From NCBI GenBank assembly GCA_964016885.1, contig OZ024742.1, positions 315,890,001 through 315,954,000 on the forward strand: a stretch of 64,000 nucleotides of DNA, read 5' to 3'. Made by a program: the position numbers and the translations under genes. This stretch comes from Eledone cirrhosa (lineage: Eukaryota). This document shows positions 43,388 to 60,946 of the stretch, piece by piece. Each line of letters opens with the position of its first letter. Position 1 is the stretch's first letter. The notes below the pieces were generated by a model, which did no database searches, was not told the origin of the DNA, and was given only the letters and a program-made list of their open reading frames with translations.

Positions 43388-43850
43388 TAGATTACTACTA
43401 AAGACATAACTAAATAAGGTAAAAGGCATTAATATTTTAGCTGTCCCTGTAACAATCAACAGTTTTAATATTCTTAAGAGGAAAATAAACAATCTTGTTG
43501 AGGCAAAAGCAAAACAAACAAACAAAAACATAATGACTGCATCTAGAACACAGTACCCAGAATCAGATATAGAGAGATTATTCTTACCACAAACACAGTT
43601 GGGGTAGGGACCTTATGCAACTAGTAAACTATTACAAAATATCCACGCATAGAGCCGGAACACTACAGCCGAATACTACAAAAGTATACACGCTGAAGAA
43701 TAATGCAGATCTAACACAAATAGCTTCAAAACATGAACAAAGCAAACAATTGATTTCTGTCCCCAAGGAAGCCAGCATGTACAAAATAAAAGAAACTGAA
43801 TTGAGAGATAGCTATGACGAAAATGTTGACAAATATATATATATATATAT

Positions 43851-43983
43851 ATAGGAAAAAGTATGACCCCGACGGCAGAGCTCAAGCCGTTTCGACGGCT
43901 ATACTTTTTCCTATTACCCACTCTACTACCCTAAGTATTGAGTACTCTGGTGCGTTATGGTACATCTTACCACAATTCCTTCG

Positions 43984-43984
<1 letters not shown>
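43851..43984 (+). mobile_element. 134-bp miniature insertion of a PLE subfamily related to the 54821-59181 element: inverted end + direct end + tail in (TA)n
   Basis: 43851-43900 closely matches 54821-54870, 43901-43914 is the reverse complement of 43851-43864, and 43915-43984 closely matches the tail 59105-59181. (TA)n lies on both sides. Confidence 0.9.
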
Positions 43985-44035
<51 letters not shown>

Positions 44036-44570
44036 AACAAAAACGGTGAGAAAGCTAAATTTTAAATTGAAAACAGTTATCCATAACGCCACGCTAAAAC
44101 AATGGCAAAAAAAACAAAAAAACAGAAAGACAAAGCAACCTTACTCTGGGATATGCCAATACACACAGACTGAGTATCTTTCGACTACAATCGACTAGAT
44201 ATTGTAGTCAAAGACCACAAAGGAACTAAATGCTGTTTAATTGACGTATCAGGCCCGAACAGATGACAATATAGCCCTTAAAAAAATAGAGAAATTATCC
44301 AAATATAAAGATTTAGGGACAGAATAAACCCAAATGTGGATGATGAAGCCAGAAACAATCTTTATAAGAGAGGCTCTGGGAATAATAAAAAGTGACAGAC
44401 AGACGGATACACAACTCAAAGCACAAAACAGAAATACACACTACTAGGTACTCTATACGTATTACGAAGAGTAACAACAACAATAAATACAATGACGCAC
44501 ACCTCTATGGCGCACAGAGTTGTGCCCGATAATGCTGTGACAACACCCAATGAAATTAAGACTAATGGTA

Positions 44571-54820: not shown

Positions 54821-55876
54821 ATAGGAACCAGTAAGACCCCGACAGCTGAGCTCAAGCCGTTTCGACGGCTAATTCTGGACTAAATGAAAATTTATCCTGG
54901 TATTTAAATAGCCGATCTTCTCAAGGGGTAATTCCATATATGGTCAAAGTGATTGTCAAAAATCAGTAGTAATTCTGTGGTTGCAAATTAGTAGGGGAGA
55001 TGGTGGCTAAACCTGCCAGTAGGAGAAAGAGGGGAGGGGGTGGAGTAGACCCAATCAAGCGTTGGTAGTGCCAGCTACAGCTGGGCATGAGGTCAAAGAA
55101 GATACAGGGGAGGGGGAGGGGGAGGAAGTCGGAACGGTAGGTAGAACAATGGGGGGTAGAAATAGGAAAGAAAAAATACTAAGAGTGAAGAAAAGCAAAT
55201 AAGTGTAAAGAAAAAAGTAAAGTAAATTAAATTCTACGACCTAGGTGTCAGGCTATTGTTAGGCGAGAATAAAATAAAGAAAGAAAGAAAGAAGTAAATA
55301 AATAAATAAATAAATAAATAAGGAAATAAGTAAGAGAACTAGGTGGGACGGATAAGGCAAGGACCCTTTTAAGAGGTATAAGTACGTAAATGATACGGTG
55401 ACGGGTCAACAAAAGGGGCCAAAATACTAAAGAGACTACCACGAAATAAACAATAAAGGTTTCCATCCCGGGCCAGCAACGACCCAGTGCAGCAAAGTGA
55501 ACTTGTACGAGATAATAATTCTGAGTCCCGAGAAAAATAAATACTAATGCTAACTCTAAAAGATCTAAAACAAGCTACATGAAAGTTCGTACGAAATAAA
55601 GGTAGAATACGGAGAAATAAATTCAGAATCCACCCCGCCCAGAAGAAAAGCGAAGCAAGAAATACTGAAACGAAAAAATAAGGCATGTGCCACTAAGAAA
55701 TATAGAGGGCACAGAGAATAGTGGGAGCGGTCGGAAAAAGGGGGAAAATATCCGGGGTCTAAGCCAACTGCTATAAAGGGCGGAGTCCGCCAAATCTATC
55801 AAAGACTAGGGGAGGGGGGTGGGGGTACTAAGGCTACATGGGGCCAAAGGGCAGCCTCGGGTGGGCGAGAAAAGAC
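54821..55876 (-). repeat. Inverted partial pLTR copy (reverse complement of 58049-59104)
   Basis: Paired positions sum to 113925 at both ends. Identical mirror ORFs 55248-55466/58459-58677 and 55369-55686/58239-58556. One mismatch noticed (55181 A versus 58744 C). Confidence 0.97.
54836..54929 (-). ncRNA. Type I hammerhead ribozyme (U3-A8 variant), inverted copy
   Basis: Exact reverse complement of 58996-59089. Confidence 0.8.
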
Positions 55877-57891
55877 TTCGGCACCAAGACTTCGGCACCA
55901 AGGAGAGATTCGGATTTATTACCTACAAATCTCCGCCCCTGAACCCCTTGCTCGCACCCTTCGAGAATGACCTCTTCCAACTGGTCAAGAACATTAAATT
56001 TAAACCCAGACACAACCGATTCCTACAAAAACTCCGTAGCAACTTAACAGACTATGATAACACAAATGACATCATGGTGCATTCGGATAAAACTGGGAAC
56101 CTATACTTTGTCAACCCTGACAGATACCACACACTGATCAGGAGCAGCCTAAACTCCACCTATAAAAAGGCCAACCACTCTTGTATCGAGGACATAAATC
56201 GAGATGGACAACAAATCACCTCCAGCCTCGGGGTCGCCGACCGCACGGAACCTCTAGACCCACGTACACCATACTTCACACTGAAGGACCATAAATCCGA
56301 TTTTGACTGTAAACCCTCCACCAGGCTTATTAACCCAACCAAGTCCGACATAGGGAGAATCAGCAAAAAAATCCTAGACCGCGTGATACCAAAAGTCAAG
56401 CAACACACCCGACTTAGCCTATGGATCAACACCCAGGAAGTAATCTCCTGGTTCAGCAATATGGAGGATAAACGAGAAACTAAATTCATACAGTTCGACA
56501 TAGAGAGCTACTATGCTTCAATCACCTTACCGCTACTTACTGCCGCCTTGGACTTCGCCGAAACACTCGTGCCCATCACCGACCAGGAAAGAAAAATCAT
56601 CCTCCACGCCAGGAAGACAGTCTTACTCTTTGACGACTCTAAATGGATAAAAAGAGCTCCCGACTCACCCTTCGACGTCAGCATGGGCGCCACGGATTCG
56701 GCGGAGGTCACTGATCTTATAGGATTATTCCTAATAGCCAAACTCACTGATATGTTTCCTGCATTCGGTGGTGGATTGTACCGTGATGATGGGCTCCTTA
56801 CCCTTAAAGGGTACAACCCCAGTAGTACAGATCGGGTCCGGAAACAATTAATCAGATTCTTCCGCGACTGGGGATTTAAAATAACCCTACAAACGTCCCT
56901 GACCCGAGTAAACTTCCTGGACGTAACCCTCGACCTCGAAAACGACCTGTACTACCCATACAGGAAACCTAATGACAATCTGCACTACATCCACCGCCGA
57001 TCAAACCATCCTAGGAACATCACAAACAACCTGGTCAAAAACATCTCCCTCCGCATATCCCGTTTGTCAGCTAATGAGCGGATATTCGATGAACATGCGC
57101 CTTATTACAACCAGGCCCTCAAGCGGAGTGGTTTCCGGGAGGAAATATCCTACTGTCCAGCTCCCATTAGCGGAACCAGCAGGAGACACCGCCGCTCACG
57201 CAATGTAACATGGTTCAATCCTCCCCACAACGCAGAGGTGACTACTCCCATCGGGAAACTATTCTTTAGGCTCATTGAAAAACACTTTCCATTACAACAC
57301 CGCTACCACAACATAATTAACAAAAATACCATCAAACTCTCTTACAGCACTACACCAAACTTCGCACAAAACATCGTCTCCTCTAACAACAAAAAACTCA
57401 ACCCCGATGGCAGAAATAACCTAATTAGCAGTGGAGAACCGACCAGGAGGTGTAACTGCCCGGATAGATCTATTTGCCCACTCGACAATAGATGCAGAGA
57501 CCGTAATGTGATCTACCAGTGCAACGTGAGGACGGATACCTCCAACAAAGCCTATATAGGACTTACCGCATGTGACTTCAAGACCCGGCTATACCAACAT
57601 AGACATACCTTCCGAAACCCGGCCCGGCGTCACGCCACTACACTTTCGGGCCACATATGGGACCTCAAGGACAACAACATCACCTATGATCTCACTTGGA
57701 GATTACTGTCCAGAGCCAATTCTTACACGGGAGGACGCCGTCCGTGCAATTTATGCTCGGAGGAAACTTTACAAATGCTGTTTTCGACGGACCAACTCCT
57801 AAACAAGAAAGATGAACTGGTTACTGCATGTAAACATGGATTGCGTAGGACTTACCTCGCCCTCAAACCCCACAATGACCCGGGGGGGTAG
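55819..57891 (+). CDS. PLE reverse transcriptase + GIY-YIG endonuclease, N-terminally truncated (element-derived frame starts about 55877; first in-frame ATG 56074)
   Basis: SDKTGN, FIQFDIESYYASI, SMGATDSAEV, GLYRDDGL, VNFLDVTLDL and YRKP (RT). CNCPDRSICPLDNRC, NVIYQC..KAYIGLT..FKTRLYQH, CNLCSEE and CKH (GIY-YIG with Cys motifs). No internal stops. Confidence 0.93.
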   Translation: MGVLRLHGAKGQPRVGEKRLRHQDFGTKERFGFITYKSPPLNPLLAPFENDLFQLVKNIKFKPRHNRFLQKLRSNLTDYDNTNDIMVHSDKTGNLYFVNPDRYHTLIRSSLNSTYKKANHSCIEDINRDGQQITSSLGVADRTEPLDPRTPYFTLKDHKSDFDCKPSTRLINPTKSDIGRISKKILDRVIPKVKQHTRLSLWINTQEVISWFSNMEDKRETKFIQFDIESYYASITLPLLTAALDFAETLVPITDQERKIILHARKTVLLFDDSKWIKRAPDSPFDVSMGATDSAEVTDLIGLFLIAKLTDMFPAFGGGLYRDDGLLTLKGYNPSSTDRVRKQLIRFFRDWGFKITLQTSLTRVNFLDVTLDLENDLYYPYRKPNDNLHYIHRRSNHPRNITNNLVKNISLRISRLSANERIFDEHAPYYNQALKRSGFREEISYCPAPISGTSRRHRRSRNVTWFNPPHNAEVTTPIGKLFFRLIEKHFPLQHRYHNIINKNTIKLSYSTTPNFAQNIVSSNNKKLNPDGRNNLISSGEPTRRCNCPDRSICPLDNRCRDRNVIYQCNVRTDTSNKAYIGLTACDFKTRLYQHRHTFRNPARRHATTLSGHIWDLKDNNITYDLTWRLLSRANSYTGGRRPCNLCSEETLQMLFSTDQLLNKKDELVTACKHGLRRTYLALKPHNDPGG

Positions 57892-59180
57892 ACTAGGGCT
57901 ATAACACCCCAGTTGCCGATTTTGCAATGGGTAACCCCTGCTTGCCAAGGAAGACGTAAGATCTTCTTTGTATTCTTTTATCGCTTCCTTTATTTCCTTC
58001 CCCCCTCTCTCCTTTGTCCTTCTACCCCAGCTCCTCTCCTTTGTCGGCGTCTTTTCTCGCCCACCCGAGGCTGCCCTTTGGCCCCATGTAGCCTTAGTAC
58101 CCCCACCCCCCTCCCCTAGTCTTTGATAGATTTGGCGGACTCCGCCCTTTATAGCAGTTGGCTTAGACCCCGGATATTTTCCCCCTTTTTCCGACCGCTC
58201 CCACTATTCTCTGTGCCCTCTATATTTCTTAGTGGCACATGCCTTATTTTTTCGTTTCAGTATTTCTTGCTTCGCTTTTCTTCTGGGCGGGGTGGATTCT
58301 GAATTTATTTCTCCGTATTCTACCTTTATTTCGTACGAACTTTCATGTAGCTTGTTTTAGATCTTTTAGAGTTAGCATTAGTATTTATTTTTCTCGGGAC
58401 TCAGAATTATTATCTCGTACAAGTTCACTTTGCTGCACTGGGTCGTTGCTGGCCCGGGATGGAAACCTTTATTGTTTATTTCGTGGTAGTCTCTTTAGTA
58501 TTTTGGCCCCTTTTGTTGACCCGTCACCGTATCATTTACGTACTTATACCTCTTAAAAGGGTCCTTGCCTTATCCGTCCCACCTAGTTCTCTTACTTATT
58601 TCCTTATTTATTTATTTATTTATTTATTTACTTCTTTCTTTCTTTCTTTATTTTATTCTCGCCTAACAATAGCCTGACACCTAGGTCGTAGAATTTAATT
58701 TACTTTACTTTTTTCTTTACACTTATTTGCTTTTCTTCACTCTCAGTATTTTTTCTTTCCTATTTCTACCCCCCATTGTTCTACCTACCGTTCCGACTTC
58801 CTCCCCCTCCCCCTCCCCTGTATCTTCTTTGACCTCATGCCCAGCTGTAGCTGGCACTACCAACGCTTGATTGGGTCTACTCCACCCCCTCCCCTCTTTC
58901 TCCTACTGGCAGGTTTAGCCACCATCTCCCCTACTAATTTGCAACCACAGAATTACTACTGATTTTTGACAATCACTTTGACCATATATGGAATTACCCC
59001 TTGAGAAGATCGGCTATTTAAATACCAGGATAAATTTTCATTTAGTCCAGAATTAGCCGTCGAAACGGCTTGAGCTCAGCTGTCGGGGTCTTACTGGTTC
59101 CTATTACCCACTCTACTACCTCAAGTATTGAGTACTTTGGTGCGTTATGGTCCACCTGGTTCCTTACCACATTTCCTTCG

Positions 59181-59181
<1 letters not shown>
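57892..59181 (+). repeat. 3' pLTR/UTR of the PLE including the 77-nt tail (59105-59181)
   Basis: Pyrimidine-rich sequence after the stop codon. It contains the hammerhead and ends at ..TTCCTTCGT before (TA)n. Confidence 0.88.
58996..59089 (+). ncRNA. Type I hammerhead ribozyme with U3-A8 core (UUGAGAA), predicted cleavage after GUC at 59084
   Basis: Stem I ACCCC/GGGGT, core TTGAGAA 59001-59007, stem II GA(T)CGGCTA/TAGCCGTC, GAAA 59062-59065, stem III CGGCT/AGCTG around palindromic TGAGCTCA, then TC. Confidence 0.82.
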
Positions 59182-59232
<51 letters not shown>

Positions 59233-59260: not shown

Positions 59261-59640
59261 TCAAGGCAGAATTCTAGGAGAAGGAAAACTATGATATAAC
59301 ACCTGCAACCCTGATGGTATCCAATGATGTTGACTTGTTCTTATTTTTGGTAAATATCATCTTGGTTAAGAGAGTGGGACTGGCTTTGTGCAGTGCCTTT
59401 GCTCACTATAAAAGCTTCACGGCACAGGCATTGCTTTATATCTGGAGATCTCTCTGCACTTGTTGTCACATGGTACCATGGGCCCAGCACTGTGTCAATA
59501 ATTTTCACAAGTGTAGTGTTTGTACCAGAGTTTTCAAGTCGCTGGCTGGACTAAAAAGTCACACTTGTTCAGCGCATCGGTAGGGGTTCTCCTACATGGA
59601 TATAAAGTAGTAGTCGTACTCGAAAACGAGTTGGCAGCCA

Positions 59641-59643
<3 letters not shown>
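59261..59643 (+). mobile_element. 5'-truncated second copy of the RTE-derived non-autonomous element
   Basis: Near-identical to 53308-53690 (ORF 59314-59583 versus 53361-53630). It ends in (TA)n. Confidence 0.85.
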
Positions 59644-59690
<47 letters not shown>

Positions 59691-59862
59691 TATTTTCCGT
59701 TGTGTTGTAATATAAATATTACCCACAGTATTCCCTTAGAATCTCGAGTCTATCTTCTAACATACAAGTATTTAAGGAACACGCCGAGTACTACGATAGG
59801 GGTAGGGGTTCTCCTACATGGATATAAAGTAGTAGTCGTACTCGAAAACGAGTTGGCAGCCA

Positions 59863-59902
<40 letters not shown>

Positions 59903-60010
59903 TATTTTCCGTTGTGTTGTAATATAAATATTACCCACAATATTCCCTTAGAATCTCGAGTCTATCTTCTAACATACAAGTATTTAAGGAACACGCCGAG
60001 TACTACGATA
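59579..60010 (+). repeat. Local tandem duplication of about 215 bp (59579-59798 / 59801-60010)
   Basis: GGTAGGGGTTCTCC..GCAGCCACCA(TA)nCAGTATTTTCC..GAGTACTACGATA occurs twice, differing in (TA)n length and one noticed substitution. Confidence 0.93.
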
Positions 60011-60946
60011 ACGCCCTTAGTAAAGCAGGCTACCTCAACAAAATAGAGTACATAGATGGGAACAATCAAAACACCCAAAATAAATCCCACATAGGTAGAT
60101 ATAATAACACAACACCAAACCACACTTACTACCATAGTATGCACACCAGTAAACCAACAAACAAAACTAATAGAAAGCGATGCAAAGAGTACTTATGGTA
60201 TAACCCCGAATACAATAGCTCCATTAGTACAAATTTACCAGTACTCTTCTTTAAAATAATTAAAAGACATTTTCCCACATCACACAAATACCACAAAATC
60301 CTAAACCCTACCACTATAAGACTGTCATACTCTACAGCGTTAAACCTTGAACAACACATAAAAAAGATCAATACTAGAAGGTTAAACGAAAACACTAAGA
60401 ACTTAAGTACAAAGAACACAAAAAAAAACAGTAGACAATACACTACAGAACATAAATAAACCACACCTAAGTTCGTCCGCAATACTACTCCAGAGAAAAC
60501 CCAACGTACACAACTGTAACTGCACCTATCCTGACAACTGCCCCCTCGGCAATAACTGCCTGGAAAAAAATATTATTTATAAGTGTACCATTAAATCCGG
60601 AGGCAACGAGTGGTATTACGTGGGATCAACGGCAACATCGTTTAAATCTCGATTGTATAGGCATTCTTACTCAATAAAACACCAGAGCCAAAGAAATGTA
60701 ACAACTTTAGCAGAAAAAGCTTGGACGCTCAGGGATAGCGACCAAAAGTTTACCCTAAAATGGGAAAAATTAGCTAAAACCCAAAGCTTTTCCAGGAGCC
60801 AAAATTTCTGCAAATTGTATAATCTTGAGATTTATTACATAATCACACACAAGAAGAAACTGCTGAATAACAGAATTGAACGAACATTATTCTGCCGTCA
60901 CAGAACTAAAACCCTTTTTTCCCACTACAAGCCGAATATTACATAA
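59900..60946 (+). pseudogene. Second PLE family: 5'-truncated, frameshifted thumb + GIY-YIG
   Basis: LRISSLSSNIQVFKEHAEYYDNALSKAGY, WYNPEYNSSISTN..HFPTSHKYHKILN..RLSYST and CNCTYPDNCPLGNNCLEKNIIYKC..YYVGST..FKSRLYRH..CRH are collinear with the 55819-57891 protein. Confidence 0.88.

Follow-up and report, generated by a model that had tools for sequence, protein, structure and literature searches.

A head-to-head mini insertion of a Penelope-like element in Eledone cirrhosa suggests that both ends of a cut (TA)n target prime reverse transcription

The stretch of Eledone cirrhosa DNA analysed here (64,000 nt, called the window) contains a 134-bp insertion, the mini, which is made up of two short arms in opposite orientation and belongs to a very large Penelope-like element (PLE) family. 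Throughout this family, nearly all two-armed copies use one each of two fixed sites 80 bases apart. The reading that we prefer, with fair confidence, is that a (TA)n target was cut and that each of its two 3' ends primed a cDNA at a different site, probably from a single RNA, to give the mini. Taken by itself, the priming of both target ends is highly probable, and the use of one RNA for both arms is rather more probable than the use of two.

The mini (43851-43984) is flanked by (TA)n runs on both sides. Its inverted arm (51 nt aligned) has 90% identity to the reverse complement of 59054-59104, and its direct arm matches 59092-59181 at 83% over 90 columns, with one 7-nt gap. A second copy at 54821-59181, referred to as the 4.4-kb element, is 4,361 bp long and has an inverted arm of 1,056 nt that is 99.9% identical to 58049-59104. 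Positions in the element are numbered such that 0 is the last T of TTCCTAT (site 2, window 59104), and the end of the tail, TTCGTTAT, is at +80 (site 1, window 59184). The features are as follows.

43833..43850, no strand: left (TA)n target of the mini, read from the sequence
43851..43902, minus strand: site-2 arm of the mini, 0 to -51, with the 3' half of the hammerhead; its last 1-2 nt (AT) are common with the direct arm
43901..43987, plus strand: site-1 arm of the mini, -13 to +80, with the tail; a rare 7-nt deletion is near 43964/43965, and the terminal TAT is common with the target
43985..44031, no strand: right (TA)n target of the mini
54821..55876, minus strand: site-2 arm of the 4.4-kb element, 1,056 nt with 1 mismatch to 58049-59104
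55869..55900, no strand: junction of the 4.4-kb element, with AAGAC microhomology and a 14-nt local duplication
55877..57891, plus strand: 5'-truncated ORF for reverse transcriptase and a GIY-YIG-type endonuclease (open frame 55810-57891; 718 aa in full-length relatives)
58996..59089, plus strand: predicted type I hammerhead, with a U3-A8 core at 59001-59007 and a palindromic loop 3; predicted cut after 59084 (-20/-19)
59015..59022, plus strand: TATA-like TATTTAAA, 29 nt upstream of the putative transcription start; function putative
59042..59047, plus strand: initiator-like TTAGTC (TCAGTC in other subfamilies); the A at 59044 is -60, the candidate capped RNA start
59102..59104, plus strand: site 2, TAT, position 0
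59105..59181, plus strand: tail between site 2 and site 1
59182..59184, plus strand: site 1, TAT, position +80, internal to the unit

An earlier note on this DNA had claimed that the mini and the 4.4-kb element share both endpoints, and this is indeed so, since each starts with (TA)n-ATAGGAA and ends with TTCCTTCGT-(TA)n. The note was also correct in placing the inverted start 20 nt past the hammerhead cut (predicted after 59084, with the site at 59104), and in stating that the inverted arm of the mini holds ribozyme sequence, namely -14 to -51, that is missing from its direct arm. It had further assigned the two copies to different subfamilies, which is only partly borne out. The substitutions in the mini are common to other copies (L045, L083, L087), but an exact 22-mer across its 7-nt deletion occurs at only 2 places in the whole 3.0 Gb genome, so the deletion is rare and does not mark a subfamily.

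Two thirds of the window (1-42861) is occupied by a 44-bp satellite, which has about 975 copies with 94% matches. A 212-bp tandem pair enclosing a (TA)n run is found at 59579-60010, and a second, different Penelope-like element, with two broken reading frames and the same CxCx5C linker, at 59923-60946. The mini lies directly upstream of a decayed frame at 44150-44400 reading DIVVKDHK..CCLIDVS, which we take to resemble the restriction-like endonuclease of R2/R4-type elements.

The mini and the 4.4-kb element are copies of a Penelope-like retrotransposon whose ORF has motifs of Hydra-clade type. The full-length ORF, a single frame of 718 aa with YRDD and VIY..YIG motifs, encodes a predicted reverse transcriptase plus, at its C terminus, an endonuclease of GIY-YIG type. 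Its nearest protein clusters (Atlas) carry the HTH_animal, GIY-YIG and RVT_1 families, and a Pfam scan of the ORF itself returned 0 families. The motifs DKT, CxCx5C, CxxC and CxH are present, CCHH is absent, and RWR replaces RWK (read by eye); the (TA)n targeting also matches the published description of the Hydra clade, and the assignment is by motifs and description rather than by a tree. An initial assignment to the Neptune clade was dropped against the Hydra clade description in PMC8557442. The unit, taken from a natural tandem array, is 3,531 bp long with the ORF starting at +171. Its pLTRs occur in tandem or inverted arrangement, and it has a one-sided tail, as in EN+ Penelope-like elements. 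The hammerhead was predicted by folding, with 0 Rfam matches at the gathering threshold; the U3-A8 variant is already known in PLEs (PMC4209133). A tblastn search against phages gave no match.

Copy numbers were obtained as exact pattern matches over the genome. A 22-mer from the tail has 36,447 matches, compared to 0 for the reversed control, and the matches are therefore not due to chance. The young form of the site-2 end has 7,429 matches. The head-to-head mini form is the commonest form of the family, with tens of thousands of copies. In the arrays L126-L131 there are 3-4.4 tandem units, which are up to 99.97-100% identical, with the 718-aa ORF intact in array A1. The near identity of the units and the intact ORF suggest recent activity and possibly a circular template.

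Two samples were used to define the outer ends. Both consist of the first matches on contig C1 and are biased to young copies. For sample A we took the first 100 matches to the tail, every one of them on this contig; 1 is internal to a tandem, leaving 99 insertions. On the tail side, 94/99 end at site 1 followed by TA, judged by eye with point changes allowed. Classified by hand, the other side begins at site 2 in 89 and at site 1 in 1; the inverted arm is missing from 8 and partial in 1. One of each site is thus found in 89 of the 90 two-armed insertions, a near-invariance of the inverted start that the earlier note had predicted. Among these 89 starts, 7 have lost their first 2-9 bases to an adjacent (GA)n or a point change, and 3 begin at +1 or +2. 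Sample B contains 90 of the first 100 young site-2 ends, and here 78 have a partner arm, which ends at site 1 in every case (78/78); a further 11 (10 independent) have no partner, and 1 is a broken duplicate.

The same rule holds for long copies. Of the 184 matches to the ORF, 20 loci were analysed. Fourteen of them are two-armed, all with one arm per site (14/14), although in one the site-2 end is at +3/+4; 8 carry the ORF on the site-1 arm and 6 on the site-2 arm. The six single-armed long insertions bearing the ORF (L335, L336, L343, L345, L346, L347) all end at site 2 and have no tail. Of three tandem arrays, two have a long arm ending at site 2 and one has it ending at site 1; arrays A1 and A2 have arms of 16 kb and 10 kb at site 2, compared to arms of 287 and 129 nt at site 1. 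The exceptions to the rule are L019, with both arms at site 1, L247, with both at site 2, and the starts at +1 to +4.

TAT occurs at 0, +24, +44 and +80 of the unit, and at both sites only UAU is able to pair with a (TA)n end. The decoy at +44, with the same CGTTAT as site 1, gives only 56 ends, which implies that pairing with the target is not what fixes the sites. Selection of the internal site by a CCUAU microhomology, as suggested by the earlier note, does not hold, since only UAU pairs and the decoy is barely used; its other detail, a start at the RNA 3' end, is unsupported. No poly(A) is present at site 1, which is internal: in tandem copies the tail end runs on via CTAGCTCC into the ORF, placing site 1 within the 3,531-bp unit, so it is not necessarily an RNA end. 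The core of that proposal, in which both (TA)n ends prime and the two cDNAs are joined, keeps the support of the one-of-each census and of the variable junctions described below, but not these two parts of it. Any target-site duplication would be hidden inside (TA)n, and no unoccupied target was encountered.

Some further features of the targets were seen. In 7/156 short elements (for example L003, L011, L027) the site-2 arm starts with ATATGAA rather than ATAGGAA, which exceeds the expectation from point mutation; the primer may end in T, with a terminal mismatch being tolerated. Insertions also form clusters in which each later copy has used the (TA)n flank of the one before as its target (L028/L029, L321, L322, L331, L341). 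A different repeat ending in (GAT)n often adjoins the (TA)n target, as in the flanks of L001, L002, L005 and L024.

The inner ends of the arms are variable, but not evenly so. In sample B, the site-2 arm stops at -53 to -65 in 66 of 90, at -19 to -22 in 8, nowhere between -23 and -38, and beyond -65 in 9. Minis start at or below -65, which is downstream of the hammerhead core at -103. Arms stop at -60 even beside a short or absent partner. In contigs of the public runs X2 and X5, depth goes up at -60 and down at +80, and both 0 and +80 show loose (TA)n ends. The same steps in these contigs indicate that the pattern is not peculiar to the assembly, with the proviso that the runs may include the assembled sample. 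Runs X6 and X7 were left out, having 3 and 4 contigs and low depth.

The position at -60 is the A of T(T/C)AGTC, 29 nt below TATTTAAA. We take these two motifs to resemble the initiator and TATA box consensus. When a capped RNA is reverse transcribed, the cap can be copied as an extra base. By hand count, a G precedes the start of the arm in 45 of the first 100 arms at -60 vs 16 of the first 100 at -59; with the commonest partner-derived G excluded, the counts are 599/6,163 and 214/4,367 respectively. If an arm carries this G and its partner also reaches -60, the partner has the matching extra base in 8/9 unselected cases. Bases following -60 were also pooled (C 28, A 22, G 9, T 1), but this count was discarded, because the loci had been chosen for that base. 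It is likely, from these footprints in DNA, that -60 is a capped RNA start. Ordinary untemplated addition could also produce the extra G, the genome-wide enrichment being only two-fold, and our literature search for a cap-derived extra G found no paper. Initiator- and TATA-like motifs have been reported in pLTRs (PMC3846280). Stalling at a stable hairpin was considered as a cause of the -60 stop, and is unsupported because the folding z-scores are not significant (0.11 for the hammerhead region, -0.75 for the 5' leader).

The second preferred stop coincides with the predicted hammerhead cut. Young arms diverge at -20 in 298 cases vs 67 at -27. The -20 position is a CpG, and of 30 divergences inspected there, 20 (19 independent) were true ends at -19, with 9 being point changes or slips. 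We infer, reading from the DNA, that the -19 stops are a footprint of hammerhead cleavage. In a single case, L313 (around 1500-1560), AC followed by 28 A is found exactly at the predicted cut, as if a tailed 5' product had been joined to the 3' product, or had been jumped to from it.

The following sequence of events would account for these results. The element's endonuclease would cut both strands of (TA)n, and the protein-RNA complex, rather than base pairing, would set both sites, such that each target 3' end primes reverse transcription at a different fixed site, site 2 or site 1. The cDNA from site 1 would displace or re-copy the stretch already read by the site-2 cDNA. Minis would result when a cDNA is primed on the copy of the site near the RNA 5' end and runs off, either at the capped start (-60, with the extra G) or at the hammerhead cut (-19). 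Long and tandem arms would come from priming on the 3' copy or on a ligated circle, or from a template jump; read-through, jumps or a circle may lie behind L095, L104, L172 and the arrays. The centre would then be sealed by host end-joining, which would leave an overlap of 0-2 nt, trimmed ends or short inserts copied from a template. The 134-bp copy would have arisen by such run-off, its two cDNA ends having been cut back to -51 and -13. The site-1 arm of L172 (L348:270-927) consists of 257-nt head-to-tail repeats (-63 to +193), like the product of repeated jumps from the RNA 5' end to the 3' end of a short RNA, or of a small circle.

Several observations do not fit easily. A single unchanged RNA does not account for copies with mixed -19 and -60 ends, and there are exceptions: the 8/99 tail-anchored copies without an inverted arm and the 11/90 site-2 matches without a partner, where one site occurs alone, the starts at +1 to +4, and L019 and L247. 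In addition, the two strands showed no difference in start site for the anole element described in PMC11167929.

The closest competitor retains dual priming but uses two RNAs, held by a protein dimer in which each subunit presents a different site. We consider it unlikely, although it has attractions. Both arms copy the same stretch, for which one RNA would need strand displacement; the anole protein is predicted to be a dimer (PMC11167929); the palindromic loop of these hammerheads is thought to pair RNAs (PMC4209133); and dual priming has been proposed for L1 (PMC2837659). Copies with one arm at -19 and the other at -42 to -62 do occur (L303, L316, L220, L062, L070, L085). On the other side, the two arms share their class of template too often for independent RNAs. 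If the first arm ends at -19, the partner is at -19/-18 in 11/16, vs 1/67 if it ends at -39 to -65, and long arms pair with long arms in 5/6 vs 0/67. At subfamily-specific sites the arms disagree in 2/109 and 4/148, which is at the level of background (104/6,669). The shared stop class and the background-level discordance favour one RNA. Concordance would also be expected if subfamilies were active at different times, however, and this, with the mixed -19/-60 copies, may leave the two-RNA route some room.

Other explanations must be set against the junctions, which were tabulated for the 78 two-armed copies by an automatic junction walk corrected by hand. There are 61 distinct end pairs among them. 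Three junctions recur, in 3 copies each, and the same junction recurs across different subfamilies. The site-2 arm reaches further than the site-1 arm in 37/78 (by at least 10 nt in 19), equally far in 11, and less far in 30; the norm is an overlap of about 55-60 nt. In 4 copies the direct arm starts at +29 to +70 and has no overlap at all with the inverted arm. Loops of 0-1 nt are frequent at the centre, as are an extra base carried by both arms and short templated inserts. This agrees with the earlier note, which had expected variable arm lengths and inverted arms that extend beyond the direct arm, and had named scattered inverted starts or one identical mini junction as the contrary result; neither was seen.

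Self-priming or fold-back of a cDNA or antisense RNA could make a palindrome, which the endonuclease would resolve at TAT (site 2), leaving the tail on one side. These steps have been proposed (PMC3846280, PMC8557442), many minis are near-perfect palindromes, site 2 resembles the TA target, and a full original overlap could have been hidden by later deletion. Fold-back does not, however, explain the 37/78 longer inverted arms, the 4 copies without arm overlap, the kilobase site-2 arms opposite short site-1 arms or the near-full-length insertions with site 2 only, and fold-back priming yields neither loops of 0-1 nt nor an additional base in each arm. This explanation is largely refuted and very improbable.

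A marginally weaker candidate has the RNA primed at site 1 only; the second target end then anneals to TAT in the new sense DNA and copies this strand as far as it extends, and trimming and ligation of the two ends complete the insertion. Identical arms, shared end points and a shared extra base are all accounted for in this way. It would nevertheless require up to 16 kb to be removed for A1 and A2 and the whole site-1 arm to be lost in site-2-only copies, and it does not explain the neglect of TAT at +24 and +44, all of which makes it hardly credible. Least probable of all is a MITE-like or deletion-derived origin of the minis from a few masters, or the collapse of long palindromes once inserted: minis do dominate the family and a few junctions do recur, but for most copies this is refuted by the 61 distinct end pairs (a family of this kind having one junction and length in common), the same junction is found in different subfamilies, the youngest copies are short already, at 100% identity to the intact unit, and the -60 stop is kept with a short or absent partner. 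Long site-2 arms, site-2-only copies or junction diversity are thus enough for fold-back, the DNA-templated second arm and the master copy each to fail, and priming of both target ends is the reading retained.

A broader proposal, to which we give an even chance, is that such programmed twin priming is the normal insertion route of PLEs. An asymmetric complex of reverse transcriptase and endonuclease would give each break end a different fixed site near the RNA 5' end, as a telomerase-style internal templating that does without the RNA 3' end, and the cap and the hammerhead cut would be recorded in thousands of junctions. If true, this would replace self-priming and endonuclease resolution as the origin of inverted pLTRs and one-sided tails across the class. 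The family provides thousands of simple young copies that follow the one-of-each rule and separate the proposed models, and the census ties an in vitro two-site result to a genomic shape. The arm ends at -19 would be a trace in DNA of cleavage by the hammerhead in cells; for the anole element this had not been seen in RNA reads, according to the main text of PMC11167929. A retroelement that inserts from both break ends without an RNA 3' end would also be relevant to the ancestry of telomerase and to RNA-templated gene insertion.

PLE insertions comprising an inverted 5'-truncated copy and a one-sided tail of 30-40 bp have been described (PMC8557442, PMC3846280). For this shape self-priming was preferred in PMC3846280, while in PMC8557442 endonuclease resolution was suggested and the making of such insertions was called undefined; the census here favours priming from both target ends over these published routes. 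The present family is like those PLEs in its head-to-head inverted arm, tail at one end, partial and full tandems, (TA)n targets and TATA/initiator-like pLTR motifs, but its tail is 77-80 nt. It shares with the Hydra clade (C-terminal EN+; PMC8557442) DKT, RWR for RWK, the CxCx5C linker, CxxC/CxH around E and N, the hammerhead and (TA)n, although units in that clade are generally under 3 kb and here they are 3.5 kb. Like non-LTR retrozymes (bioRxiv 10.64898/2026.07.22.740005), minis are short non-coding copies derived from pLTRs, and the 257-nt tandem L172 resembles them; retrozymes, however, are repeated head to tail with a complete hammerhead in every repeat, whereas a mini is one head-to-head unit in which the 5' half of the hammerhead is missing, and the minis have no common junction.

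In L1 twin or dual priming, each of two target ends primes a cDNA, and the joining of these cDNAs leads to a 5' inversion with correlated arm lengths (PMC2837659, bioRxiv 10.1101/2024.08.27.596794). The likeness is in having two opposite cDNA arms, each attached to one target end and joined centrally. In L1 this is a side route, and here it is the main one. One L1 primer is on the poly(A) tail and the internal site is spurious and variable, whereas here both sites are internal and fixed: there is no first primer on a 3' poly(A), and a site varying with chance complementarity is not what is seen (89/90 at one site, 56 ends at the decoy). Internal duplication is found in 17% of L1 cases, with a median of 22 bp, compared to the usual overlap of about 55-60 nt here.

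The nearest parallel is Poseidon of Anolis carolinensis, for which two fixed internal start sites of reverse transcription bracket the tail downstream of the hammerhead in vitro, with both DNA strands cut and extended at AT-rich targets (PMC11167929). Two fixed sites around the tail and AT-rich targets are common to both systems. The earlier note knew of no description of a fixed two-site rule; the two sites are in fact already known in vitro from that work, but its main text up to Methods does not discuss inverted arms, and neither the rule of one site per target end nor run-off at cap and ribozyme cut was found for these elements in the literature searched, older subscription papers being outside its scope. 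As described there, the Poseidon RNA site is not homologous to the cut DNA, whereas both sites here end in TAT; its strands have no site preference, whereas each insertion here has one of each site; and no reads are reported at the ribozyme cut, where arm ends pile up here. What is likely to be new in the present family is the one-of-each rule, together with short arms that stop at two likely RNA 5' ends (-60 and -19), usually both arms together.
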